64,000 nucleotides of DNA from an uncultured Verrucomicrobiae bacterium (lineage in GTDB: Bacteria; Verrucomicrobiota; Verrucomicrobiia; Chthoniobacterales; UBA10450). Shown here piece by piece: positions 361 to 17,083 of this stretch (positions are counted from its first letter, which is position 1; each line of letters begins with the position of its first letter). Under the pieces are notes generated by a model, which was not told the DNA's origin, searched no databases, and saw only the letters and a list, made by a program, of their open reading frames with translations. The stretch is from NCBI GenBank assembly GCA_963815455.1, contig CAWFGO010000002.1:384001-448000 (forward strand), in the 5' to 3' direction. Position numbers and translations under genes: made by a program.

Positions 361-1226
361 TTTTTGGGCGGGGCCGGGCTAGCGGCGGGCGACGACACAG
401 GGGCAGGCGCCGGTGCGGCTGATTTTACTTCAGGCAAGGGATGCGATTGATCGAGAGACATAAGATAAGCGACCAGACATTTTGCTTCGTAGCTGGGGAC
501 AATCTCCCAGTTCTTGCGGGCTGCGCTCGAATTCATTAGCTCCAAGGCGTCGGCCGAGCGTTCACCCGATACTCGACGCTTTTCATAAAGGAAACGATAG
601 GCCGGCATGTTCGAGTCCCTGGAGATGCTGCGCGGTGAGTAAAGATTGAGATGATGCCAGGCCGCCGAATAGGCCGGGGGTCCGGCGGGCGTCGGGGCAG
701 GAACGGATTGGGGTGACGCAGCTGCAGCTGGAGTCGGGGCAGCGGCGGCCACAGGCGCTGACGATGCGACAGGACTCGCCGCCGGCGAAGCGCCACCTGG
801 ACTCGGGCCCGCTGCGGCTGCGGCGTTTTCCTCCTCCACGGGAGCGGCTTTCCCAATGTTGGCCAAGTCCGGGCCCAGCCGTTCTTTCCCGAGAAGTACG
901 GGTCGATCGAAAATATAGTCGCGGGGCGCGCTGCGGCGCATTCCCCATTTTGCATGCTGTCCCCAATCGCGCTCTCGATCGAGATCGGAAGCGGCATAAT
1001 CGGGGCGAAGTTGTTCGCTGTGGCAATAGATGCAGCCGTTGGCGACGTAAACCTGCCGCCCGCGTTCGACCATTCCCGATTGCGGCATTGGATAGATGTC
1101 AGTGCCTTCCTCGTCTGATTGCGGACTGAGATGACCGATTTGCCAATTCGGGATCAGAATCAGGCCGACCCACGAGAAAGCGAAGGTCCCAAAGATTCCG
1201 AGAAAAAGTGAAGCCAGGCCTTTCAT
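357..1226 (-). CDS. ccoO: cbb3-type cytochrome c oxidase subunit II-like (CcoO/FixO) with Pro/Ala-rich insert
   Basis: GRQVYVANGCIYCHSEQLRP, LGKERLGPDLANIG and SNMPAY motifs. Confidence 0.85.
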   Translation of the reverse strand: MKGLASLFLGIFGTFAFSWVGLILIPNWQIGHLSPQSDEEGTDIYPMPQSGMVERGRQVYVANGCIYCHSEQLRPDYAASDLDRERDWGQHAKWGMRRSAPRDYIFDRPVLLGKERLGPDLANIGKAAPVEEENAAAAAGPSPGGASPAASPVASSAPVAAAAPTPAAAASPQSVPAPTPAGPPAYSAAWHHLNLYSPRSISRDSNMPAYRFLYEKRRVSGERSADALELMNSSAARKNWEIVPSYEAKCLVAYLMSLDQSHPLPEVKSAAPAPAPVSSPAASPAPPKK

Positions 1227-2710
1227 ACGTGCGCTTCGGAGTCCTCCGCTTCGACTGGATTAAGGAATGTCGGGACGGTCGAGGTCCTCCCCAGACCAAA
1301 GAGCATTAGCCCAAAATGAAATGCGAACCCGAAATTCGCCACGATCAGCAGAATCCAGGAAAGACTCCGCCCACGGAGGTATGGGAGAACGGTTTGGATG
1401 GCTTGGCTGAAAGGGAGGGTGGGGTTGTCCATGTTCGCGCCCTGAAGCAGGCCCCCGGTGAACAGCATCAAGACCATAAGGCCAATCCCGTAAGCCGAGC
1501 CCCAGAAATGCAATTTGATGAGCGAGGCGTAACGCCATTCCCGCCCCACCAATCGCGGCACGATGTAGTACATCGAGCCGAAAATGATCATGGTGTAAAA
1601 AGCGTAAAGCCCGAGGTCCGAATAGGCCGCGCTGGTTTCGGTAAAGTTCGCGTACCGGGCCACGGAGCGCAGCGAAATTAAAACGCCGATCAGACTAAAG
1701 ACCGTGTAAGACATCGCGCCGAATACGGTGAAGCGCAGCGTGGGGCTATAACGCATCAGCGGAAAATAACCTTGCATCGTCATGTGATGATTCAGGCCGA
1801 CCGTGGCTACCGGAATGATGGTGAGGATCGTCGCGGCGATGCTGGCCGTTATCATCCAGGCGGGAAACGGTCCATCGACCAGGCGTTGCATTCCCGTCCA
1901 GCTCGAAAAAAGGGCGTATGTCCAAAAACCGATAGTGGCGAGATGGTAACTGTAAACCGGACGCCCGATGACCTTCGGGATCATATAATACGCGACGCCC
2001 AGTCCGATCGCGCCGAGCCACAGGAAGAGCAGATTGTTTCCATACCACCAGGACACGGCGGCTTGCATCACCCCTTGCACAGGCACGACGAAGAGCATCA
2101 GATTGGCCGCGGCATAGAGCCATGGGAACCAGAGGAACGCGCCTACCAAATACCATTGGGTGATGTAAATCTGCTCGCCGTGCCTAAAACGGAACATTAA
2201 TACCGCCCAGGAAATGATCAGGGTATAGGCGACGAAGAGAACGATCGCCGCGTAGGGCGGAAACTCGAGCCAGTGATAGCCAGTGCCTTCTCCCGCCAGA
2301 ATTCCGCCAACGCCGAGGAGCACGCCAAAATTCCAAAAACCGGCGCCGGCGACGAGCAGAAGCGGGTGGCGCAGAGTTGTCCGGCACAGCCGGGCCACGA
2401 TCCAAATTGCGGTGCCCATTCCGGCCAGGGAAGCCCAGCCGTACACCATCACGTTCATCTGGGCCGGTCGCATCCGTCCCCAGGTGAGAAAGCTGATGTT
2501 CGAGAGAAAATCCGGCGCATGCATCTTAAAGGAAACGAATCCGGCCATCAGCGTGCCGATAAGCAGCCAGACAATCGCCGACGCGTAAAACATCAACACC
2601 GGCACGCGGGTCGAGGCATCGATCAACACGCGTTCGACCTGGTCGACGTCGGTGGCGGTAGCGCTCGCGGGAATCGTCGGTTCTTTCAACGGAATTCCGG
2701 GCGCGCTCAT
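1223..2710 (-). CDS. cbb3-type oxidase subunit I-like (CcoN fold) lacking canonical His ligands
   Basis: About 12 TM helices; LTWGRMRP, WWYGNN, YYMIPK..GRPVYSY and YYIVPRL motifs match CcoN, but the His positions are substituted. Confidence 0.85.
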   Translation of the reverse strand: MSAPGIPLKEPTIPASATATDVDQVERVLIDASTRVPVLMFYASAIVWLLIGTLMAGFVSFKMHAPDFLSNISFLTWGRMRPAQMNVMVYGWASLAGMGTAIWIVARLCRTTLRHPLLLVAGAGFWNFGVLLGVGGILAGEGTGYHWLEFPPYAAIVLFVAYTLIISWAVLMFRFRHGEQIYITQWYLVGAFLWFPWLYAAANLMLFVVPVQGVMQAAVSWWYGNNLLFLWLGAIGLGVAYYMIPKVIGRPVYSYHLATIGFWTYALFSSWTGMQRLVDGPFPAWMITASIAATILTIIPVATVGLNHHMTMQGYFPLMRYSPTLRFTVFGAMSYTVFSLIGVLISLRSVARYANFTETSAAYSDLGLYAFYTMIIFGSMYYIVPRLVGREWRYASLIKLHFWGSAYGIGLMVLMLFTGGLLQGANMDNPTLPFSQAIQTVLPYLRGRSLSWILLIVANFGFAFHFGLMLFGLGRTSTVPTFLNPVEAEDSEAHV

Positions 2711-3323
2711 GTTTTCGTTTGGAGGATCGACATGTTCATTCGTAACGGACTCAAATTAGTTATGGCGTTTGTGCGGGGAACCGGTGTCGGTGATGCCGCC
2801 GCTGGTGATTGTGCAGGCGCCACAGGTTTATTGACCGCAGCGGCGGGTTGTCCGTGCGCTTCCGATTTCGGGCCCGAGACCGAGGTCGCTGTCGGGGTCC
2901 CGGCTGGCGTCGGCGAGGCAGTCGGCGCCGGAGTTGGCTTTGGCGCAGCCGTGCGGTCGGGGCCGGCGCCGCCGAAGCCTGAGGTGCAGGCGTGGCGATT
3001 GGACCCGCCGCAGCAGGTTGTTTCTGCGCCAGATCGGCAATGGTTAGTTGCATCGCTTGCTCGATTGGCACCCGAACAGTGCCCTTGGCCTTGTCGATCC
3101 AACCGTAAGTAGTAAGCGCTTTGGCGTTCTCGTCGCGAAGAGTTTTGAGCTTTTCTTCGCGAGCCTTCGCTCGTTTCTGTTCGTAATCATCGCTGCGCGG
3201 CGACGGCCCGATAATTGCCAGCACGATCACACCGAAGATGGCAAACAACACCACTACGCCCACCCACGTGGAAAAGGGCGCGCGCGTTTGCGCTACTTCG
3301 CGGAGTTGTTCCGACGTGGTCAT
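2707..3323 (-). CDS. actG: ActG-like small membrane subunit of ACIII (frameshift near 2970)
   Basis: One TM helix plus YGWIDKAKGTVRVPIEQAM motif; Pro/Ala tail continues in the 2707..3102 frame. Confidence 0.65.
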
Positions 3324-3324
3324 G

Positions 3325-4527
3325 TTAATTTATTGTTTTTAAAGATTCGATCAGGCGCGGGTCGCGGACTGGAAAGAGGGAAGTGCGCGGCAAAATTTGA
3401 ACGTAAACAAATGCGAGGGTTGTGCCGATCCCGATCAATGCGACGAAATCCCAGATGCTGACGTGGACGCCGGTGCCGTGCAGCGCGGGCAGGACGACAA
3501 TGTACATGTCGAGCATCTGCATCAGGACGATCCAGCCGGCCATGTAACAGAGACGACCCGGTTGCTTCTTGATCGACCGCAAGAGCAGAATGGCAAACGG
3601 TCCAAAGAAACGCCCGATTACCAGGAGCATGGTCAACGTCCACCACGATTGGGTATTCCGGACGATGAAATACTGCGTCTCCTCCGGCATGTTCGCATAC
3701 CAGATAAGCATGTATTGACCGAAGCCGATGTAGGCCCAGAAAACGCAGAAGGCGAACATCCATTTTCCCATGATGTGGTAATGCTCGACGGTAACGATTT
3801 CCTTTAAATAACCGGCCCGGCGCAAAGCTGTAATCACGAGGACAAGCAGGGCCATGGAACTGCCGGCGGTCCCGGCAAAGATGTAAACGCCGAACATGGT
3901 CGAGAACCAGTGATAGTTCAGGCTCATCAGCCAATCGAACGCGCCGAAAGTGAGGCAGAGGGCAAAGACCGGTAAACTGGCGAACGCGATCTTGCGCATC
4001 CAGATGGTGTGCCGCGGATTTCCGTCCTTGTCCTGCCGCGCCGAAAACCGGAGCAACAACTGCGAAGCGATGATGAACAACCCGAAGAAAATTACGGCGC
4101 GGACAAGGAAGAAATTCCAATTGAGATAGGCGCGCTTGGAATCGAGCGCGGCCTCCTGTCCCGGCTGAATATTCATCCATTCGTAAAGATGATGTCGAAG
4201 CAATAGAACCGGCACAAAGAACAGCGCCATCATTGCCAGGAGCGAGCCGATGTTTTCCATTTGGCGCCGCACCACCACCGACCAGTTCGCATCGGTGGCA
4301 TGATGAACGATCGTCCAGAAAAAGCAGCCGGCGCACAGGGTAAAGAAAAAAGCGAAAGCGAACAGCCAGGAGAAACTGAATTGCTGAGGATCGACAAACG
4401 CGCCCACGATGCAAAGAGCCAGGGCAATGAAAGCGACCAGCCCAAGAAGGATCGAGAGCCCGGTAAAACGGCTGCTCTCGAAACGCTCGCCTTCCGGCGC
4501 GGGCAAGTTATGAGAACGATCGCTCAT
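3325..4527 (-). CDS. actF: Alternative complex III membrane subunit ActF
   Basis: About 10 TM helices; FDWLMSL..HWFSTMFG and QYMLIWYANMPEET; operon position. Confidence 0.9.
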   Translation of the reverse strand: MSDRSHNLPAPEGERFESSRFTGLSILLGLVAFIALALCIVGAFVDPQQFSFSWLFAFAFFFTLCAGCFFWTIVHHATDANWSVVVRRQMENIGSLLAMMALFFVPVLLLRHHLYEWMNIQPGQEAALDSKRAYLNWNFFLVRAVIFFGLFIIASQLLLRFSARQDKDGNPRHTIWMRKIAFASLPVFALCLTFGAFDWLMSLNYHWFSTMFGVYIFAGTAGSSMALLVLVITALRRAGYLKEIVTVEHYHIMGKWMFAFCVFWAYIGFGQYMLIWYANMPEETQYFIVRNTQSWWTLTMLLVIGRFFGPFAILLLRSIKKQPGRLCYMAGWIVLMQMLDMYIVVLPALHGTGVHVSIWDFVALIGIGTTLAFVYVQILPRTSLFPVRDPRLIESLKTIN

Positions 4528-5216
4528 TGTTTCTCCATCTCAGCGCGATGTTCCGCCGGAACATCGGCAATGGTTGCGTTTTGACTGCGCTGGAGAGCGC
4601 GCAGATAAGCGATGATCGCCCACCGATCAGCCACGGTGACGTTCGGTCCGTAGGCCATCATCGTGTTCTTGCCGTGCGTGACGGTGTTAAAAATTTCGCC
4701 GTCAGCCATCTTGCGAATCCGGTCGTCCTGCAACGTGACCACGGTGGCGAGACCATATTGTTTGGTGATGCCGTTGCCTGCAGCGCTGGCGCCGTGGCAC
4801 ATCGCGCAGGTGATATCGAATCGGTGACGGCCGCGCTCCATCAATTCCGGCGTGACCTTGAGCGGAATGCCCGTGCCCCAATGATCGCCCATCTTTCCGG
4901 TGTTGTAATAATCGGTGCCGGCGCTGAAGGCGACCTGCGAATGGGCTCGAGGCGATTCAACCGAAACTGCCGGTGTTGCGATCGTTTCCGGTTTCGGCAT
5001 TTCGTAGCCGATCGGCACCGTGCCGGCCACAGGCAGGCGCGATCCTCGACCATCGGCAAAAAATCCGAGCGGGGCCTGCGCGCGCACTTTCATCTGGCGC
5101 ACCATGTCGGGGAAAACCTCGATCGGCGAGCCGGTGCTTTTTTGTCCGCGAAATCCCAGCACGGCAACAAGCGCGACGGCGCACAGCAGGAACATTACGA
5201 GAAAGCCGCGGATCAT
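4524..5216 (-). CDS. actE: ACIII monoheme cytochrome c ActE
   Basis: DMVRQMK, FFADGRGSRLPVAGTV, CAMCH and DRWAIIAY. Confidence 0.9.
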   Translation of the reverse strand: MIRGFLVMFLLCAVALVAVLGFRGQKSTGSPIEVFPDMVRQMKVRAQAPLGFFADGRGSRLPVAGTVPIGYEMPKPETIATPAVSVESPRAHSQVAFSAGTDYYNTGKMGDHWGTGIPLKVTPELMERGRHRFDITCAMCHGASAAGNGITKQYGLATVVTLQDDRIRKMADGEIFNTVTHGKNTMMAYGPNVTVADRWAIIAYLRALQRSQNATIADVPAEHRAEMEKQ

Positions 5217-5773
5217 TCTTCCTCCTCGTGAATAATGGTGATGTGCTGGCCGCCGGTGCGTTCGAGAAGCTCGCGCGCTTCGATTTCGGTAAAGCGCGGG
5301 TCGCGCGCTTCAATCGCGAGAAAGAAACCGTCGTTGGTGGCGCGTTTGAATCGTTCCCAGTTAAAAATCGGATGATTCCAGCGGGGCAGACCGTTCATGA
5401 TCTGCCAGGCGAAAAACGCAGCGAACGCCGCGAACAGCACGGTCAGCTCGAACATGATCGGGAAAAACGCCGGCACGGTGAAAAAGTTCGTCGGTTTGCC
5501 GTGAACGACGAGCGGATACAGAAATGACGATGGACCAAATTCGACGAACGCCGCGGTGCTCAACCCGGTGATACCGCCGATCAATACCCAAGTGCTCAGC
5601 CACGATTTGCCAAGCCCCATCGCCTCGTCCATTCCGTGGATTGGAAATGGCGAAAAAACATCCCAGCGTTTGAACCCGGCATCGCGCACCATTTTCGCCG
5701 CTTCATAAAGCGCGGCCGCACTCGGATATTCCGCTCCCATTGCGTAAACTTTGTGACCGGAAGGCGTTTTCAT
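5213..5773 (-). CDS. actD: ACIII subunit ActD (DUF3341)
   Basis: [16 protein letters not shown] and [13 protein letters not shown]. Confidence 0.92.
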
Positions 5774-7231
5774 GCTTGCTCCATTCCTCCGGACGCGACC
5801 GGATGACTCTCAGTCGCTCCGCCATAATGCGCATCCGCTTCCGGCAGCACGATCTTCACTTCCGACATCGCGATCATGGGAAGGAAGCGAATGAAAATCA
5901 GGAAGAGCGAAGTGAAGATGCCGAGCGTGCCGATAAAGGTCCAGAGATCCACCCAGGTGGGGATAAACAAGCCCCAGGACGAGGGCAGAAAATCGCGATG
6001 CAATCCGCCGACGATAATGATGAAGCGCTCGAACCACATGCCGGCGTTCACGCACATGCAGACGAAATAGACGACGAAGATGTTGCGCCGGCACCAGCGG
6101 AACCAGAAGAGCTGCGGCGAAAGCATGTTGCAGAACAGCATTCCCACCCACCAGTACCACCAGTAGGGACCGAACACGCGGTTCCAAAACGCGAACCGCT
6201 CGTAGTCGCTGCCGCTATACCAGGCGATGAAAAACTCCATGGCGTAGGCGTAACCGACAAACGAGCCGGTCAACAAAATGACCTTCGCCATCTTGTCGAT
6301 GTGCTGCGGCGTGATGATGTCGTGCAGTTTGAAAATCGCGCGCGCCGGGATCATCAGCGTCAGCACCATGGCGAATCCGCCAAAGATCGCGCCGGCGACG
6401 AAGTAGGGCGGGAAAATCGTGGTATGCCACGTGGGCAGGATCGACGTGGCGAAGTCGAACGATACGACGCTGTGCACGGAGAGAACCAGCGGCGTGGAAA
6501 GACCGGCCAAAAGCAGATAAGCCATTTCGTAATGACGCCAGTTGCGGTTCGAGCCGCGCCAGCCGAGCGCGAAAAGCCCGAAGAGAAATTTCTTGATCTT
6601 GGTGGTCGCGCGATCGCGCAACGTGGCCAGGTCTGGGACCAGCCCGGTGTACCAAAACAGCACCGAGACCGTGAAATAGGTCGAGACGGCAAACACGTCC
6701 CACATCAGCGGGCTGCGGAAGTTTGGCCAGATCGCCGAAGTTATTCGGTATCGGCGCGAGATACCACGCCATCCAGACCCGACCGACGTGGATGCCGGGG
6801 AAAATCGCGGCGCACATCACCGCGAAAAGCGTCATCGCTTCAGCCGATCGATTGATCGACGTGCGCCATTTTTGCCGGAGCAAAAATAAAATGGCGGAGA
6901 TCAGCGTGCCGGCGTGTCCGATACCGATCCAGAAAACGAAATTGGTGATGTCCCAGGCCCAGCCGACCGGATGATTCAATCCCCAGGTGCCGACGCCGGT
7001 GGAAATTTGATAGCCGAGACAGAAGAGCCCGAACATCGCGATCGACGCGGTGATGGTGAACGTGACCCACCACCAGCGCGGCGCCGGCTGTTCCACCACG
7101 CCTGAGATGCGTTCCGTGAGCCAGCTGAAATTCCGCCGGTTCAATACCAGCGGGACACGCGGAAGCGGCGCCTCAACCGAAGCTGTCGCTCCGCTCTTGA
7201 TCACGTCTGGCGATGTGGGTGTTTCTTCCAT
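5770..7231 (-). CDS. actC: ACIII NrfD/PsrC-family quinol-binding subunit ActC (frameshift near 6735)
   Basis: [23 protein letters not shown] then (WPNFRSPL)[10 protein letters not shown]; removing one G joins the two ORFs. Confidence 0.9.
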
Positions 7232-7404: not shown

Positions 7405-10400
7405 TCACGCTTTCCCCTGCGGGCTGGCTACGCCAATTTCACCTGCGTCGGGCATTTTAGGATTCGGGTTGCGAATGCGGGCGAGATAACTGGTTCGCGT
7501 GCGCACGTTCAGATATTGAAGCAATCGGTAATTGCGGTCCTGTTCTTTTATCTTCGAGACACGGCTTTCCGGATCGTTGATGTCGCCAAAAACAATCGCT
7601 TCGGTCGGGCAAGCCTGGGCGCAGGCAGTGGTAAACGAGTCGCGTGGAATCCGGGTATCGGCGGAAGCGCCGGCATGGACATGGGCAGCGATTTTTGCTT
7701 CCTCGATGCGCTGAACGCAGAACGTGCATTTCTCCATCACGCCGCGCATTCGGACCGTGACATTCGGATTCTTCTGCATCTTCACGATGTCCGGCGCGCC
7801 CTTGGTGGTGAGCGGGGCAAAGTATTCCTGATAAACGCTGAATTGGCCGGCGATTTTCTTTTTGCCGACCGGCCGCTGGTTGTAATCGAAAAAGTTGAAC
7901 CGGCGAACCTTGAACGGGCAGTTGTTCGCGCAATATCGCGTGCCGATACAACGGTTGTAAGCCATGACGTTGAGGCCGTCTTCGCTGTGAACGGTGGCGT
8001 TGACCGGGCAGACCGTTTCGCACGGCGCGTTTTCGCAGTGCTGGCACATCATCGGCTGATGCACCATTTCCGGGTCCTCCGGCCAGACACCTTTTTCCTG
8101 ATTGAACTGTTTGTCGCTGGCGTAATAGCGATCGATGCGAATCCAGTGCATCGCCCGGCCATGGCTTACCTGCAATTTCCCGACAACCGGAATGTTGTTT
8201 TCACTTTGGCAGGCAATGACGCAGGCACTGCACCCGGTGCACACATTAAGATCGACAGCCATCCCCCACTGCTGCGGCGCGGTCAACGGGGGATGCTGGT
8301 AAATGCTGGGCAGCTTGTGATCGGTTTCTTCGGCGGCCCCGGCCACCGTCTTCACAAACTCGTTATCTTTGCGGTAATTCTCGATCGTCGCTTCGCGAAC
8401 CAGGCCGCGGCCTTCAATGCTGAAATGGTCCTGCGTAGTCGAAAGCGGATAGGTGCGGCCGACCTTTGTCACCTTCACACTTTCGATTTGCTTCCCGTCG
8501 GCGGCGATGAAGTGCGGATTGATCGGCGTGCGTAACAGATAAGCATTGAAACCTCGTTGCTCGGCTTCGGTTGGTTTGGCGTCGGCCGCGCCTCCGGCGT
8601 AGGGCAGCGATTCGAAGCCCGGCATCTTGCGGCCATAACCGAGCGGGATCGTAATCGAGGAATCCGCGTGCCCCGGTGAAACAAGAGCGGCGATGACCAG
8701 CTCACGGCCGATCGGCTCGCGGCCGGCGCTCTTTTCAGCAATTGCCACTTTGATGAGATCGCCCGTTTCGACGCCGAGCTTCCTGGCGTAGACCGGGCTG
8801 ATGATCGCCGCATTGTCCCAGGCAAGTTTGGTAACCGGGTCGGGCATTTCCTGGAGCCAGCCGTTGTTAATGTATCGGCCGTCGTCGATCGAGTAACTGC
8901 CCACCAAGACGATCTCGGGCGAATCCGCGCTCGGCGCCGGCGATGCGTTCCAGAGATTTTGCATAACCGTGCGTGCGGCATCGGTATTAAACGACGGCGA
9001 CCGCTCCGCCGGTTTGACCTGCGGCGCGAAACCGTCCCGGAGAAATGCCGACCACGCGGTGGCAAAATCCCCGGATGGATTTGTTGCGCGAAACGTTTCC
9101 TGCACCAGTTCCGGGCCTTCCGGCTTTGGTCCGCCCAGTAACGCATTCAGCAGTTCGATCTCGGACAGACCGCCGAAGAGCGGCAAGATCATCGGTTGGA
9201 TCGACAAGTAACCACCATCGGCTGTAAGCGCGTCGCCCCAGGATTCGAGATAATGCGCCGCGGGAACATGCCACTGGCTCAGCGCCGATGTCGCGTCCTC
9301 GTGATAACCGAGCCGCACCACATTCGGCACCTTCTTCTGCACGTCGATCCAATCCAGCGGCCGCTTGGTTTCTCTCTCCTCCGCCACCGCGCGGTGAACG
9401 TTGTAAACCGGGTCGCCTCCGAGAACGAACAAGTGTTCGATGTGCCCGTCTCTCATCTCCGCCGCCAACTGCAGGATGCTGTTCGTGCGCGGATTGCGCG
9501 CAAAATCGTGCGCGATTAATGTCGTGCCGATATTCCTCAGCGCGGAATTGATCGCGTAGACAAGCAATTGTACCACCACGGGTTGATGCGGGCCGGCCAG
9601 CACCAGGCTCGCGCCCGGCTTGGACAAAAGATCTGCGGCCGCTTCACTCAGCCATTGCTCGTCGAACTTCGCCGCCCCAGCCGGTAATTGCACACCTGAC
9701 GTCAAAGATCCAAGAGTGGCATCGTTGGTTGCCGCAAAAATCTTCCCGGCCAGTGCGTAGGCAAATGCCGATATCTGGCTGGCCGGACAACGCAGGCGAT
9801 GATCCGCCATCGCGCCGGTGAGCGTGAAACGATTTTCGACAACGTAAAGCCGGTTCATCGTTTCCCGAGCCGATCCGATCCGGCGTCGCGAACTGAAAGC
9901 GCGCACCGAAGCGAGATCGCCTTCGCCGCAATCGAGAAAATCGCTGTCCATCGCCAGGATCACATCGGCTCGATCCAGGCGCGGCAGGAGCTGCAAGTTG
10001 TTGCCGAAAGCGACCTGAGTGGAATAGCTCTGCGCCTGGCTCAGGAGCGGGTCGTAAACGCACCAGCGCATGTTCGGGAACATTTTTTCCAGCTCGCCGC
10101 GTAAACGCTCCCGCGTGGGCGAGTAAGTCTCCTCGACCAGGAACGCCAGGCCGCTCCCTTGCTGCGAAGCGAGTTTCTTGCGCAATTCGGCCAGATAAGT
10201 CTCAAACTCCGCGCGATCGCTCGGTTTCCCGTTGTGAACGAAAGACTTCGAGCGCGTCGGATCGTAAAGATCGAGAACGGATGCCTGGGCGAACGCATCG
10301 CTCGCTCCTCCACTGGCGGGATGGAGAGGATTGCCGTCAACCTTGGTCGGTCGTCCATCGTTCGTAGTCACAACGAGCGGGATCGCGCCGGCTCGCCGCG

Positions 10401-10707
10401 GCATCGCGGTGGCGTAGAAAAGCGGTTTACCCGGGATCGTCCACTCGGCGCTTTTCGTAAACGGAACCAGATGCGCCTCGGGCCGGCGGCAACTGCTCAA
10501 GCCGAAACCGGCCAGCGCCATCGAGGCGCCCATCAATTTCACAAAACTTCGACGCGACCATTCGTCGCCATTCAATTGGTCGGCCCCGGCCGGAAATTCG
10601 TGCTCCAGCCATTCGTGAAACTCCGGCGTGTCGCTCAGCTCATCGAGGCTGCGCCAGTAACGCTTCCCGGTCGCCGAATCCGGCGGATGTTCAAAAACGC
10701 GTTTCAT
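7405..10707 (-). CDS. actB: ACIII ActB (molybdopterin oxidoreductase-like domain fused to Fe-S domain)
   Basis: YWRSL, Tat motif SRRSFVK, CTGCSACVIAC, CQHCENAPCETVCP, CIGTRYCANNCP and RGVMEKCTFC. Confidence 0.95.
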   Translation of the reverse strand: MKRVFEHPPDSATGKRYWRSLDELSDTPEFHEWLEHEFPAGADQLNGDEWSRRSFVKLMGASMALAGFGLSSCRRPEAHLVPFTKSAEWTIPGKPLFYATAMPRRAGAIPLVVTTNDGRPTKVDGNPLHPASGGASDAFAQASVLDLYDPTRSKSFVHNGKPSDRAEFETYLAELRKKLASQQGSGLAFLVEETYSPTRERLRGELEKMFPNMRWCVYDPLLSQAQSYSTQVAFGNNLQLLPRLDRADVILAMDSDFLDCGEGDLASVRAFSSRRRIGSARETMNRLYVVENRFTLTGAMADHRLRCPASQISAFAYALAGKIFAATNDATLGSLTSGVQLPAGAAKFDEQWLSEAAADLLSKPGASLVLAGPHQPVVVQLLVYAINSALRNIGTTLIAHDFARNPRTNSILQLAAEMRDGHIEHLFVLGGDPVYNVHRAVAEERETKRPLDWIDVQKKVPNVVRLGYHEDATSALSQWHVPAAHYLESWGDALTADGGYLSIQPMILPLFGGLSEIELLNALLGGPKPEGPELVQETFRATNPSGDFATAWSAFLRDGFAPQVKPAERSPSFNTDAARTVMQNLWNASPAPSADSPEIVLVGSYSIDDGRYINNGWLQEMPDPVTKLAWDNAAIISPVYARKLGVETGDLIKVAIAEKSAGREPIGRELVIAALVSPGHADSSITIPLGYGRKMPGFESLPYAGGAADAKPTEAEQRGFNAYLLRTPINPHFIAADGKQIESVKVTKVGRTYPLSTTQDHFSIEGRGLVREATIENYRKDNEFVKTVAGAAEETDHKLPSIYQHPPLTAPQQWGMAVDLNVCTGCSACVIACQSENNIPVVGKLQVSHGRAMHWIRIDRYYASDKQFNQEKGVWPEDPEMVHQPMMCQHCENAPCETVCPVNATVHSEDGLNVMAYNRCIGTRYCANNCPFKVRRFNFFDYNQRPVGKKKIAGQFSVYQEYFAPLTTKGAPDIVKMQKNPNVTVRMRGVMEKCTFCVQRIEEAKIAAHVHAGASADTRIPRDSFTTACAQACPTEAIVFGDINDPESRVSKIKEQDRNYRLLQYLNVRTRTSYLARIRNPNPKMPDAGEIGVASPQGKA

Positions 10708-10780: not shown

Positions 10781-11506
10781 TCATCGGTGGCACCCCTGAC
10801 AATTCGTCGGCGGATTAATGTTCCACTTCTCCTTCAAAGTCTGGCCGATTTCGCTTTGGGTGAGATTTTTCTTCTTCGTCCAATCTTCCTTCACTCCATC
10901 GGGCATTCCGTATTTCGCCACAAAATCCGCCGGCTTCACATCGTCCGGTTTCCAATCGAGATTGAAAATCTGGTCATCGGGCCGCAGGAAATTTTCCGGA
11001 TGCCGATGGCATTCGAGGCACCAGGCCATGCTGTGCGGTTTGGCGTGATAAACCACCGGCATGTGATTGACCTGACCGTGGCAACTGAAACAACTGATCC
11101 CGCGGTTCACGTGCGCGGAGTGATTGTAAAAAACGTAATCAGGCGTGCGATGAATTTGCACCCACTCGATCGGCTTGCCGCTTTTCCAGCTTGCTCGCAT
11201 CGGCTCGAGCTTCGGATTGTCCTTTTGCACCTGGGTGTGGCAGTTCATGCACGTCTGCGTCGTCGGCAAATTCGAATGCGCCGCCACTTCGACAAAGCTG
11301 TGGCAATAACGGCAATCCATCCCCAGTTGCGACACGTGGATATCGTGCGGGAACGGCACCGGCTGGATCGGTTGATAACCCACGCGCGTGTACTTCGGCG
11401 TGACGTAATACCAGGTCGCACCGGTCAGGCCGCAAACCAGCACCATGGAACAAATCACCGTTTTGAGCGGCAACCAATTGGTCCAACGCGGAAAAAAATT
11501 CGCCAT
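10781..11506 (-). CDS. actA: ACIII pentaheme cytochrome c ActA
   Basis: Five CxxCH motifs (CRYCH, CMNCH, CFSCH, CLECH, CQGCH) and QPVPFPH. Confidence 0.95.
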   Translation of the reverse strand: MANFFPRWTNWLPLKTVICSMVLVCGLTGATWYYVTPKYTRVGYQPIQPVPFPHDIHVSQLGMDCRYCHSFVEVAAHSNLPTTQTCMNCHTQVQKDNPKLEPMRASWKSGKPIEWVQIHRTPDYVFYNHSAHVNRGISCFSCHGQVNHMPVVYHAKPHSMAWCLECHRHPENFLRPDDQIFNLDWKPDDVKPADFVAKYGMPDGVKEDWTKKKNLTQSEIGQTLKEKWNINPPTNCQGCHR

Positions 11507-13593: not shown

Positions 13594-14033
13594 CGATGAT
13601 AGCGCGACGCAAACAAATCGCGATTCTAACAGCGCAGGCCCTGGTTGCAGTCAGCTTTTGTACAGCGCAATCTCCCAAAGAAATCAGCCTGCAGGAAAAG
13701 CGCATGGAGATTCGGGCGCAGCTTCTCAAGCTGACACCGATCGGCTCGACCTCCGAGCAGGTGCGAAAATCAATCCAGCGAAACCTGCTTCACGCCGGTG
13801 AGACAGCGCCGCCGTTGGAAAACCATCCCGCAGGCATTACCGAGTCGGATCATTCTGGCCCGCACGGCGTAAAAAGCATCCGTCTGCGTCTCGGCGGATA
13901 CCTGGCGGATCCAGCCATTGTTCTTTTGACCGCGCCGTTGATTTCCCACAAGGAGGTTTTTGCCGAGTGGGCGTTCGACAAAAAAGATCATCTGATCGAA
14001 ATCTTCGTGGACAAAACTTCGCGCGTTTATTGA
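13590..14033 (+). CDS. Hypothetical exported protein
   Basis: 147-aa ORF with signal-like N-terminus, overlapping the amidohydrolase stop. Confidence 0.6.
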   Translation: MTMIARRKQIAILTAQALVAVSFCTAQSPKEISLQEKRMEIRAQLLKLTPIGSTSEQVRKSIQRNLLHAGETAPPLENHPAGITESDHSGPHGVKSIRLRLGGYLADPAIVLLTAPLISHKEVFAEWAFDKKDHLIEIFVDKTSRVY

Positions 14034-15826
14034 CTCTCTCCCACCGGGAGATTTCGATTTTGTCCGGCAAGCGTGAGGATAATATCCGTCTTGGAAATAC
14101 TGCCGACAAGCCGTCCCCGCGCTGAGCCTTCGACAACCGGCAGACGCTCCCCATCGTGGCGGACAAAGGTTTCGAGGGCTTCGTTCAGCGCGGCATCGGG
14201 CCGAACTTTGGGAAAACTTTCGCGCATAATATCACCGGCGATGACCAGCTCGGCCAGCTCGGGTGAATTGAGGAAGCTTTTAATATCGTGCAGTGATATC
14301 GCTCCCAGGAAGCGCCCGTCATCGGCGACGTAGAGATAGTTAAAGCGATTTGCGATGAACTTCTCGCCAATTTCAGCAAAGCGCGCCGTTCTCGACACTG
14401 TGATTGGATCCGGCTTCATCAGTTGGCGAACATGCAGGTTTTCAAACTGCCCGCGGAACGCGTCCGCGCCTTTGCGCTTCAGCGATTCGCTGTAGATCGA
14501 GCGCTTCTCGATGCTGAAGGACGTATAGTAGGCGGTGACGCAAGCGAGCATCAATGGCAGAATGATCTCGTAGTCGAGAGTCATTTCGAAGATCATGAGG
14601 ATTGCCATGATGGGCGCGTGGGTCGTTCCGGCGAGAAAAGCGCCCATCCCGACCAGCGCGAAAGCGCTCGGTTCTGGATGGAAGGCGCCAAAGGCTGGTA
14701 CCACAGTTCCAAAGAGATAGCCAAGGCCCGCGCCGACAAAAAGCGTTGGGGTAAAAACTCCGCCAACGGCGCCCGAGCCAAAGGTCGCAGTCGTAGCGAG
14801 AATCTTAAAGAGTAGAATCAACGCGACAGTCTGCCAGAGCCAGTGGCCGGCAAGAATATCGCTTATGGTGCTATAGCCGTTGCCGCATACTTCCGGATAA
14901 GGGATCGCGAGCGCGCCGACCGCCAGGCCGCCGATGGCCATGCGCACGAACACCGGAACAGGGAGCCGCAGGAACAATCGCTCGCCCCGTTCAAGCAAAC
15001 GCAGAAACCAGGGCGCGACAAATCCGGCCAGCAACCCGAGGGCAAGGTGCGGGATGATTTCCCAATTGGAGGTCAAACGAAATGCCGGCACCGCATACAA
15101 TGGGTCCCGCCCAAGAAAGCCGCGCACCGTGAGTGTTGCGATTACGGAAGCGAAAACGAGCGGCCCGAATATTTCCATGGCGAGCGAGCACATCACAATC
15201 TCGGCTACGAAGAGCGCGCCAGCGATCGGGGCGTTGTAGGCGGAGGCGATGCCGGCGGCGGCACCGCAGCCCACCAGCAGTCGCATCCGCGGCGTAGACC
15301 AATTGCGCATTCTCCCAATTTGGGAAGCGATCAAGGACGAAAGCTGCACCATCGGCCCCTCCCGGCCGATCGATCCGCCCGACGCAATGGAGAACATTGC
15401 CGAAAGCGACTTCACCAGGCTGCGCGAGGCCGAGATTTTCCCATCGCCAAGCACAATCGCTTCCATGTAATCGGTGGTGGCCACCCGTCCCCGCCGATAT
15501 CCAACGAGAATGACGAAGCCCGCGAGCAGACCGCCAAATGCCGGGGTCAGTAACCGCTGCCACAACGGCAGATGAGAAAACGTCTCCACGATTCCGTGCG
15601 TGGCCCGTCCGGTAAGAATGCTGTGCATCAATCCCGCACCAAGCCGAAATAGGATCGACGTCAACGCGCCTAGAAATCCGATTATCCCGGCCCACGCCAG
15701 AGTACGCTGGAGTTCCGTTGGATGGAACGCCTGTTTGAACCAGACCCATAGCTTGAGCAGGCGCAGCACCCCTGGCCGCATTGCTGCGGTCCCTTGCGGA
15801 TCGGTCGGTCCCTGCACACTCACCAA
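14027..15826 (-). CDS. clcB: ClC-family chloride channel with CBS domains
   Basis: GSIGREGP and GGVFTPTL motifs plus a C-terminal CBS pair. Confidence 0.88.
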   Translation of the reverse strand: MVSVQGPTDPQGTAAMRPGVLRLLKLWVWFKQAFHPTELQRTLAWAGIIGFLGALTSILFRLGAGLMHSILTGRATHGIVETFSHLPLWQRLLTPAFGGLLAGFVILVGYRRGRVATTDYMEAIVLGDGKISASRSLVKSLSAMFSIASGGSIGREGPMVQLSSLIASQIGRMRNWSTPRMRLLVGCGAAAGIASAYNAPIAGALFVAEIVMCSLAMEIFGPLVFASVIATLTVRGFLGRDPLYAVPAFRLTSNWEIIPHLALGLLAGFVAPWFLRLLERGERLFLRLPVPVFVRMAIGGLAVGALAIPYPEVCGNGYSTISDILAGHWLWQTVALILLFKILATTATFGSGAVGGVFTPTLFVGAGLGYLFGTVVPAFGAFHPEPSAFALVGMGAFLAGTTHAPIMAILMIFEMTLDYEIILPLMLACVTAYYTSFSIEKRSIYSESLKRKGADAFRGQFENLHVRQLMKPDPITVSRTARFAEIGEKFIANRFNYLYVADDGRFLGAISLHDIKSFLNSPELAELVIAGDIMRESFPKVRPDAALNEALETFVRHDGERLPVVEGSARGRLVGSISKTDIILTLAGQNRNLPVGESQ

Positions 15827-15877: not shown

Positions 15878-17083
15878 CTACGAGTAGAGATACTCGTCGT
15901 GATATTCGCGTTGGGGCGCGAACTGGACGTTTTCGTTTCCGGTCTCGGGATACTCGAAGATTTTTCCTTCGTAGTTTCGGATCACGATTTTTTCGTGGTC
16001 GTGATACAGGACGTAGCCGGGATTGATCGGAACTTTGCCGCCGCCGCCGGGGGCGTCGATGACAAACTGAGGCACGCCGTAACCGGTGGTGTGTCCGCGC
16101 AGGCCTTCGATGATCTCGATTCCTTTGGCGACGGAGGTGCGGAGGTGCGACGAGCCGTTGATCAGGTCGCACTGATAGACGTAGTACGGACGCACCCGGC
16201 ACATGAGCAGTTTGTGCACGAGCGTTTTCATCGTTTCGAGATCGTCGTTCACTCCGGCGAGCAACACGCTTTGGTTCCCAAGCGGAACACCGGCGTTAGC
16301 CAGACGTTCGAGCGCTTCTTTTACTTCAATCGTCAGCTCGCGCGGATGATTTACATGCACGCTCATCCAGAGCGGGTGATGCTTGGCCAGAATCGCACAG
16401 AGTTCCGGCGTGATCCGTTGCGGAAGAAAAATCGGGACTCGGGTGCCGATGCGGAGAAATTCGATGTGCGGGATCGAGCGCAGTCGGGTAAGCAACTTGT
16501 CGATCTTGTCGTCACTGAAAATCAGGGCGTCGCCGCCGCTCAACAGGACGTCGCGAATTTCGGTGTGTTGTTCGAGATAACGAAACGCTTCCTCGAAATC
16601 GGTGTGCAATTCCTGTTCGCCGACGCCGCTGACAACGCGGCTGCGCGTGCAATACCGGCAATAGCTTGCGCAGCGATCGGTCACCAGAAACAGAACGCGA
16701 TCGGGATAGCGATGCACCAATCCCGGCACCGGCATGTGCGAATCTTCGCCGCACGGATCGGCCATGTCGTATGGCGACGCCCAGGTCTCTTCGATTCGGG
16801 GGATAACCTGCCGTCGGATCGGATCGTCCGGATTATCCCGGGGAATCAGATTGAAAAAATGCGGCGTGACCGCGAGCGCGAGTTTGTCGCCCGAAAGCAG
16901 TACGCCGCTGCGTTCTTCGTCGCTGAGATGGAGATGCTGCTCGAGCTGGGCCAGCGTGGTGACGCGGTTCTTAAGCTGCCATTTCCAATCGTTCCAGAGT
17001 TCCGGCGCGACCTCCGGCCAGTAACCCGGCGCATGCGAGACGAACTCCTTGCCGTTGCCTTTCCCTGCTGCAGAAATGTCCAT
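15878..17083 (-). CDS. kamA: KamA-family radical SAM protein (lysine 2,3-aminomutase-like)
   Basis: GLVHRYPDRVL, CASYCRYCTR, NQSVLL and DAPGGGGK. Confidence 0.9.
   Translation of the reverse strand: MDISAAGKGNGKEFVSHAPGYWPEVAPELWNDWKWQLKNRVTTLAQLEQHLHLSDEERSGVLLSGDKLALAVTPHFFNLIPRDNPDDPIRRQVIPRIEETWASPYDMADPCGEDSHMPVPGLVHRYPDRVLFLVTDRCASYCRYCTRSRVVSGVGEQELHTDFEEAFRYLEQHTEIRDVLLSGGDALIFSDDKIDKLLTRLRSIPHIEFLRIGTRVPIFLPQRITPELCAILAKHHPLWMSVHVNHPRELTIEVKEALERLANAGVPLGNQSVLLAGVNDDLETMKTLVHKLLMCRVRPYYVYQCDLINGSSHLRTSVAKGIEIIEGLRGHTTGYGVPQFVIDAPGGGGKVPINPGYVLYHDHEKIVIRNYEGKIFEYPETGNENVQFAPQREYHDEYLYS

Follow-up and report, generated by a model that had tools for sequence, protein, structure and literature searches.

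The genes that directly follow the alternative complex III (ACIII, act) genes in verrucomicrobial methanotrophs have been treated as encoding a working cbb3-type oxidase, at least in the accessible text of three reports (PMC8498564, PMC10205796, 10.1101/2024.01.15.574570), the last of which calls the Methylacidiphilum-type cbb3 high-affinity. In the databases, such proteins are labeled 'cytochrome c oxidase cbb3-type subunit I'. Here, we describe a gene of this kind, ccoN', from a 64,000-nucleotide stretch of an uncultured Verrucomicrobiae bacterium (contig CAWFGO010000002.1, positions 384,001 to 448,000; referred to as the window). It occupies the same position directly after the act genes as the ACIII-linked 'cbb3' of the methanotrophs and of Opitutaceae in the accessible part of PMC8498564, and it encodes a CcoN-fold membrane protein without ligands for heme b, heme b3, and CuB.

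CcoN' has the 12-helix fold, homology, the gene order ccoN-ccoO-cytochrome c, and the predicted CcoO interface in common with CcoN of the Pseudomonas stutzeri cbb3 oxidase (3MK7/5DJQ). In contrast to that protein, CcoN' lacks the residues for heme b, heme b3, CuB, and the Tyr cross-link, no ccoS accompanies it, and its third subunit is monoheme. Other groups within the heme-copper oxidase (HCO) superfamily that do not reduce O2, the nitric oxide reductase (NOR) families cNOR, qNOR, eNOR, bNOR, sNOR, nNOR, and gNOR, likewise have no cross-link Tyr. However, according to the available portion of 10.1101/2021.10.15.464467, these families keep both hemes and the active-site metal, whereas in CcoN' all ligands are replaced; gNOR is presented there as the first HCO family in which even a single active-site His is replaced. 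In the ACIII-aa3/caa3 supercomplexes of Flavobacterium johnsoniae and Rhodothermus marinus, as far as the accessible text of PMC8552683 describes them, ACIII feeds an A-family oxidase via membrane-bound c hemes, the extra heme being the sixth domain of ActA or part of caa3, while in the present locus a disarmed cbb3 module would take that place. A literature search, with subscription papers and bioRxiv supplements (including HCO classification tables that might be relevant here) outside its reach, returned no published description of a ligand-less CcoN.

Results

CcoN' lacks all heme and copper ligands and is under purifying selection

The ccoN' gene (positions 1223-2710, minus strand) is an uninterrupted open reading frame (ORF) of 495 amino acids with zero stop codons. 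Its product matched PF00115 in a Pfam scan (E 1.8e-51) and was homologous to P. stutzeri CcoN (3MK7_A) by HMMER alignment (E 1.8e-38). We took H60 and H347 of the latter to be the ligands of low-spin heme b, H345 to be that of heme b3, and Y251 to be the cross-link Tyr. In the alignment, the His pair of heme b is replaced by Q84 (2459-2461) and D365, the H345 position is occupied by Y363 (1616-1624 together with D365), and Y251 is replaced by S269 (1883-1906, which also holds Q275 and R276). The three CuB ligands, H207, H257, and H258 in the assignment and numbering given in the accessible text of PMC3578206, are exchanged for N225 (2036-2038), Q275, and R276, respectively. A sequence-only reading of the window had claimed, from alignment by eye, an intact ORF devoid of all six heme/copper His and apparently of the helix VII Tyr, and the formal alignment confirmed this in every respect. 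As no ligand His is left in the alignment, CcoN' also does not have the heme and FeB His that, with an active-site Glu, are typical of a NOR. Against TIGR00780, CcoN' scored 151 bits at a cut-off of 583, a value that may also miss His-complete members of the subfamily. An AlphaFold2 model based on 60 ligand-less sequences (pLDDT 93) showed 12 long helices; its best structural match was 3MK7_A (TM 0.86, rmsd 2.1), with NOR structures ranking lower. Because all heme and copper ligands are gone, CcoN' is almost certainly unable to reduce oxygen, and we have hardly any doubt that it is not an oxidase. The earlier proposal that the gene product does not function as an O2 reductase is supported.

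The gene is under purifying selection, with a ratio of nonsynonymous to synonymous substitution rates (dN/dS) of approximately 0.08. Compared to its 12 closest relatives, ccoN' had values of 0.069-0.095 at a dS of 1.0-1.4, which is near saturation. The 12 fully ligand-free genes gave a median of 0.077 over those 38 of their 66 pairs that had a dS of 0.05-1.5, with values of 0.072 at dS 0.30 and 0.041 at dS 0.48 among them, and the heme-b-retaining genes (the first 30 of 78) gave a median of 0.078 over 258 pairs. Conservation of CcoN' within the Udaeobacter-group family, to which the gene belongs, was about that of ActF (75-94% vs 72-90% identity, ten pairs), while outside the family ligand-less CcoN diverged faster than ActF in four of six pairs (52-61% vs 59-84%). 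The same ligand replacements recurred in more than 100 independent assemblies. Thus, the gene is maintained, and the alternative that a local error or a pseudogene accounts for the missing ligands was not borne out by the intact frame, the low dN/dS, and the shared replacements. CcoN' is a genuine pseudoenzyme version of the catalytic subunit of cbb3 and is conserved; we infer a function for it below.

Ligand loss is staged and repeated

Close relatives were defined as the best 120 of 1810 matches, the query included; kin within this set are not independent, and named loci were drawn from close relatives only. The nearest named relatives were metagenome-assembled genomes (MAGs) of Chthoniobacterales and Candidatus Udaeobacter (73-86% identity). 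H207, Y251, H257, and H345 were absent in all 120 homologues, with Asn at the H207 position throughout, and H258 was kept in 9. In contrast, the low-spin heme b pair (H60 and H347) was complete in 100 of the 120, entirely missing in 12, and reduced to one His in 8; at the H60 position alone, His occurred in 102. Among 94 distinct loci of the family, 78 had both residues, 12 had neither, 3 had H60 only, and 1 was gapped. The pair underwent seven state changes on a FastTree phylogeny from which its two columns had been omitted. Whether close homologues keep the ligands, a question raised by the sequence-only reading, is thus answered differently for the two sites, the catalytic ligands being lost throughout except for H258 and the heme b pair being mostly kept. 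Since the catalytic ligands, apart from H258 in 9 proteins, are gone in all relatives and 100 of 120 keep the heme b pair, the catalytic centre appears to have disappeared early in the family and heme b at a later stage and more than once, with the present copy as the end state of this staged loss.

Staged and repeated ligand loss extends across the Verrucomicrobia and is not peculiar to this genome, which the sequence-only reading had missed. A match was obtained in 30 of 31 genomes of the family (unpublished G460 included) and in 230 of 251 genomes of the order. Among 150 representatives at 50% identity, counted irrespective of gene context, 133 spanned all sites; 4 of these had all seven residues and 126 had two or fewer, and the replacement residues at the ligand positions differed among lineages. 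Sixty loci of approximately 20 kb, a non-random sample picked for family spread and long contigs, comprised 17 with a His-complete ccoN (44-51% identity) and 43 with a ligand-less one at the same operon position. The act genes were located upstream in 59 of the 60 loci, and ccoO and the cytochrome c gene downstream in 59. Complete and ligand-less copies occurred within one genus (L081 and L098). Of the seven residues, the proteins named as Methylacidiphilum kamchatkense (P0271) and M. infernorum (P0273) have only the His at the H258 position. Four genomes of the Methylacidiphilum family each gave a single query match, and in the one that was checked the other candidate was NorB beside a cytochrome c.

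The ActB/C/D/F tree, with 58 rows and without L079 and L109, showed 10 changes of ligand state; there were 6 on a tree of CcoO and the cytochrome c (52 rows) and 1 on a CcoN tree calculated with the LG model. On a mixture-model CcoN tree (23 rows), the ligand-less proteins formed three separate groups, each placed next to its complete relatives, and an approximately unbiased (AU) test on this tree (p 0.57) neither rejected nor supported a single origin. Based on the state changes on the ACIII, CcoO plus cytochrome c, and mixture-model CcoN trees, the catalytic centre has, as judged from these phylogenies, been lost independently at least three times and probably 6-10 times. In-place gene replacement is a possible alternative to repeated loss.

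Two further loci carried unusual subunit I genes. At L202:3947-7125, a degenerate CcoN-like gene (444 amino acids, PF00115 34 bits) and a diheme CcoO-like protein are encoded away from the ACIII operon. At L203:3366-4859, a 497-amino acid B-family-like subunit I with seemingly partial ligands directly precedes a complete B-family oxidase.

Loss of ccoS and retention of partner hemes and the NHH motif

CcoS is needed for cofactor insertion into CcoN. A small ccoS-like gene was present between actG and ccoN in all 16 complete loci with upstream sequence and in none of the 43 ligand-less loci (14 of the 16 positive loci were seeds of the profile; L109, whose sequence ends early, was left out). 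Three of four tested copies matched FixS/CcoS in Pfam, one of them above the cut-off, and gene presence agreed with ligand state in eight of eight independent pairs (p 0.008). Profile searches of the window, the locus, and the 90%-complete genome found no ccoS/fixS; the short gap between actG and ccoN' (2711-2759) is devoid of a ccoS-like gene where catalytically complete operons have one. Given the role of CcoS, this loss lends independent support to a cofactor-poor CcoN'. In six family loci (L069, L070, L073, L075, L076, and L077), a ccoS remnant with an open frame and a conserved C-terminal motif, from which the membrane helix is gone, is located just upstream of ccoN'. These remnants possibly represent a gene in decay or one that is reused.

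The heme sites of the partner proteins are retained. CcoO has CxxCH in 52 of 52 loci and the Met in 49, and the third-subunit cytochrome c has both in all 52. In the CcoP-like cytochrome of the window (L001:17602-18360), an N-terminal His, H26, is also conserved (48 of 52); together with a Glu/Asp-Pro motif it might, on the cytoplasmic side, lie opposite the NHH motif of CcoN.

This motif, N307-H308-H309 (1784-1792, minus strand), contains the HH pair that had been noted from the sequence as new. It is present, and the fold model placed it at the C-terminal end of helix VIII, presumably on the cytoplasmic side if the usual HCO topology applies. Its novelty did not hold, since the motif occurred in 27 of 27 and 16 of 16 His-complete orthologues in two alignments. 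All 120 close homologues have NHH, while in other ligand-less lineages it is mostly gone (H308 in 2 of 19, H309 in 7 of 19). NHH is thus ancestral to the ACIII-linked CcoN subfamily, and because all His-complete orthologues possess it and other ligand-less lineages have mostly lost it, we rejected it as a replacement ligand set.

At the equivalent of S240, which we take to be a proton-channel residue, all 16 complete proteins have Ser, and all 120 close homologues and 107 of 129 distant ligand-less proteins have Ala. Y241, N307, and Y335, presumably equivalent to the proton-channel residues Y223, N289, and Y317 of P. stutzeri, stay in the family; Y335 is Phe in 63 of the 129 distant proteins.

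The ACIII operon and other oxidases of the genome

The window contains a strand-consistent cluster in the order actA-B-C-D-E-F-G, followed by ccoN', ccoO, and, extending across the left edge, the gene of a CcoP-like monoheme cytochrome c, so that the embedding of ccoN' in an ACIII operon seen in the sequence-only reading was correct. All of these genes are on the minus strand. ORFs, Pfam, and locus comparison identified actA (10781-11506) as a pentaheme cytochrome c gene without the sixth-heme domain. Pfam identified actB, encoding the Fe-S subunit (7405-10707), actC of the NrfD family (5770-7231), actD (5213-5773; PF11821, E 2e-55), and actE, encoding a monoheme cytochrome c (4524-5216). The two remaining genes have no Pfam match and were assigned from the ORF list and locus comparison: an actF-like membrane subunit named by position (3325-4527) and a single-helix subunit that we take to be actG (2760-3323). 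The ccoO product (357-1226; FixO, E 5.7e-19) is a membrane-anchored monoheme cytochrome c with C65-C68-H69 and M207, and the ccoN' stop overlaps the ccoO start in an ATGA at 1223-1226; both the retained ligands and the coupling had been recognized earlier. The 5' part of the CcoP-like gene occupies positions 1-360, and the gene (252 amino acids) extends 398 bases beyond the left edge. Both cbb3 partners are thus encoded, although the likeness to CcoP is weak (TIGR00782, E 4.5e-8) and only one heme is present.

The actC gene is split into two frames by one extra base at 6733. In each of 20 family loci, actC forms one undivided ORF, and contigs of relatives (two runs, one study) do not have the extra base; the frameshift is probably an assembly error. 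The Ala/Pro-rich tail of the actG-like gene (2760-3000) also shifts frame compared to relatives, with the membrane part intact. Elsewhere in the window, we noted what we take, from familiar motifs, to be a KamA-like radical SAM gene (15878-17083), with the gene of a CLC-type channel containing CBS domains (14027-15826) after it.

The genome (3.6 Mb, 90% complete) gave three PF00115 matches: ccoN', an A-family subunit I, and a B-family subunit I. The A-family (aa3) gene is located approximately 9 kb downstream of ccoN' with coxB, ctaA, ctaB, and sco genes. Neither beyond the left edge of the window nor elsewhere in the 90%-complete genome did PF00115 and profile searches reveal a His-complete CcoN. 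The B-family oxidase (subunits I, II, and SCO; G000:C1:1564421-1576874) is encoded on another contig. Upstream of it lie genes for multiheme cytochromes, a cytochrome b, and a Rieske protein as well as genes for the maturation of cytochrome c, which together with the oxidase make up a second complete route to O2.

Discussion

CcoN' likely serves as a membrane scaffold for CcoO. We also favor, with less assurance, a wider role in which it carries both CcoO and the CcoP-like cytochrome c, which would relay electrons from ACIII to an aa3/ba3 oxidase. ACIII would oxidize quinol, and the electrons would run from ActA via ActE to the hemes of the CcoP-like protein and CcoO and leave to the CuA of another oxidase instead of entering CcoN. 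Starting from a working ACIII-linked cbb3, the b3/CuB centre and ccoS would have disappeared several times; the heme b ligands would have persisted for longer in the Udaeobacter-group family and then gone as a pair in several sub-lineages, including that of this genome. Among the three roles originally suggested for the protein, scaffold is the best supported, while no support was found for a transporter or a sensor.

In a three-chain model of CcoN', CcoO, and the cytochrome c, calculated from ligand-less alignments only, CcoO was placed on CcoN' with a score of 0.85 (best control 0.01), with at least 92% of contacts shared between runs and a partner pLDDT of at least 69; 116 of 157 solved pairs and 2 of 215 mismatched pairs reached the mark set for such models. 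The model may be a memory of the solved 3MK7 structure and shows likeness. ActA has five hemes and CoxB of this genome has no heme c. As an additional c heme takes part in the known pairs of ACIII and oxidase (PMC8552683, accessible part), an extra electron carrier between ACIII and the oxidase is plausible by analogy. An A-family-scoring match, typed by bit score only, was found in 43 of 43 ligand-less genomes, and, of the 23 ligand-less loci outside the family, 13 had coxA downstream inside the 20-kb span.

Several points weigh against the scaffold and relay. Conserved residues showed no enrichment at the predicted CcoO interface (11 of the 46 that are kept universally vs 85 of 465 positions, p 0.32), and sequence conservation therefore does not single out CcoO binding. 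An A-family match also occurred in 16 of 17 complete genomes, a co-occurrence that does not discriminate, and 10 of the 23 loci outside the family have no coxA nearby. In the window, coxA lies approximately 7.5 kb past the cytochrome c gene, across unrelated and opposite-strand genes, and the actC frameshift, if real, would leave ACIII crippled in this strain. Moreover, 12 helices are a high price for anchoring cytochromes that possess a membrane helix themselves, and conservation at the level of ActF, NHH, Y335, and the mostly retained heme b pair go beyond the needs of a bare scaffold.

Alternatively, CcoN' could be a structural part of ACIII or of some supercomplex, with the cytochromes as an electron buffer or a branch to a separate cbb3, NorBC, NosZ, or peroxidases. 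Linkage to act (59 of 60 loci) is tighter than that to coxA, many ligand-less genomes outside the family have a separate His-complete CcoN-O fusion, and a nos cluster is located inside the ACIII-cbb3-aa3 cluster of M. caldifontis, as described in the accessible text of 10.1101/2024.01.15.574570. However, a fusion-type CcoN-O was found in none of the 20 family genomes searched, all of which have an A-family match, and at L205 (11386-18115) the block ccoN'-ccoO-cytochrome c-coxA-coxC stays together approximately 7 kb from actF. We regard this explanation as unlikely.

Lower still is the probability that the protein keeps a redox or sensing role in the family via low-spin heme b and the cytoplasmic NHH, this copy having lost the heme part. 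Here, no heme ligand remains at all; in the family, the pair was lost repeatedly (seven changes on the FastTree phylogeny) without a raised dN/dS, and both His are kept in only 2 of 129 ligand-less representatives. ORF inspection, made without a family scan, revealed no signaling gene beside the operon. These points stand against the joint retention or loss of H60 and H347 (78/12/3/1 of 94 loci, 100/12/8 of the best 120), as expected for a real bis-His heme, the nearly invariant NHH (120 of the best 120), and the conserved H26 of the partner cytochrome (48 of 52).

We give little credence to a proton or ion channel or a transporter derived from the emptied oxidase core. Although Y241, N307, and Y335 stay in the family, ligand-less proteins have convergently lost a polar channel residue through the change from Ser to Ala at the S240 equivalent, Phe takes the place of Y335 in 63 of 129 proteins, and the replacements at ligand positions vary by lineage. 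Equally doubtful is a new catalytic site with the non-His ligands N225, Q275, R276, and Y363. Y363 is Phe in 6 and Q275 is Thr or Ala in 5 of the 120 close homologues, other lineages have unrelated residues, ccoS is lost, and this copy has no heme b left to deliver electrons; these observations outweigh the near fixation of the replacements in the best 120 of the 1810 matches and the existence of HCO families with altered active sites (10.1101/2021.10.15.464467, accessible portion). Finally, a decaying pseudogene or assembly error, to which the frame shifts in actC and actG and the faster divergence from ActF in four pairs outside the family might point, is highly improbable in view of the intact frame, the dN/dS of approximately 0.08, and the identical replacements in more than 100 independent assemblies.

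Taken further, and tentatively, the scaffold and relay would mean that Verrucomicrobia repeatedly turned an oxidase into a cofactor-free hub, with CcoN' holding a two-heme wire in a three-part ACIII-aa3 supercomplex. CcoN' might then represent the first pseudoenzyme family of an HCO catalytic subunit, the Udaeobacter-group soil family displaying both an intermediate (heme b only) and the end state (the present gene), and these bacteria as well as Methylacidiphilum might be without a high-affinity cbb3 despite the annotation.

cbb3 genes serve as markers for microaerobic respiration. Should the ACIII-linked copy prove dead in the Udaeobacter-group family, which is common among the soil MAG titles of the close relatives, and in the methanotrophs, views of their oxygen physiology and gene-count surveys would need correcting. 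The pairs of complete and dead copies within one genus (L081 and L098) and the cultured Methylacidiphilum make this question testable. An oxidase core that is kept without any cofactor points to an unrecognized structural role of subunit I.

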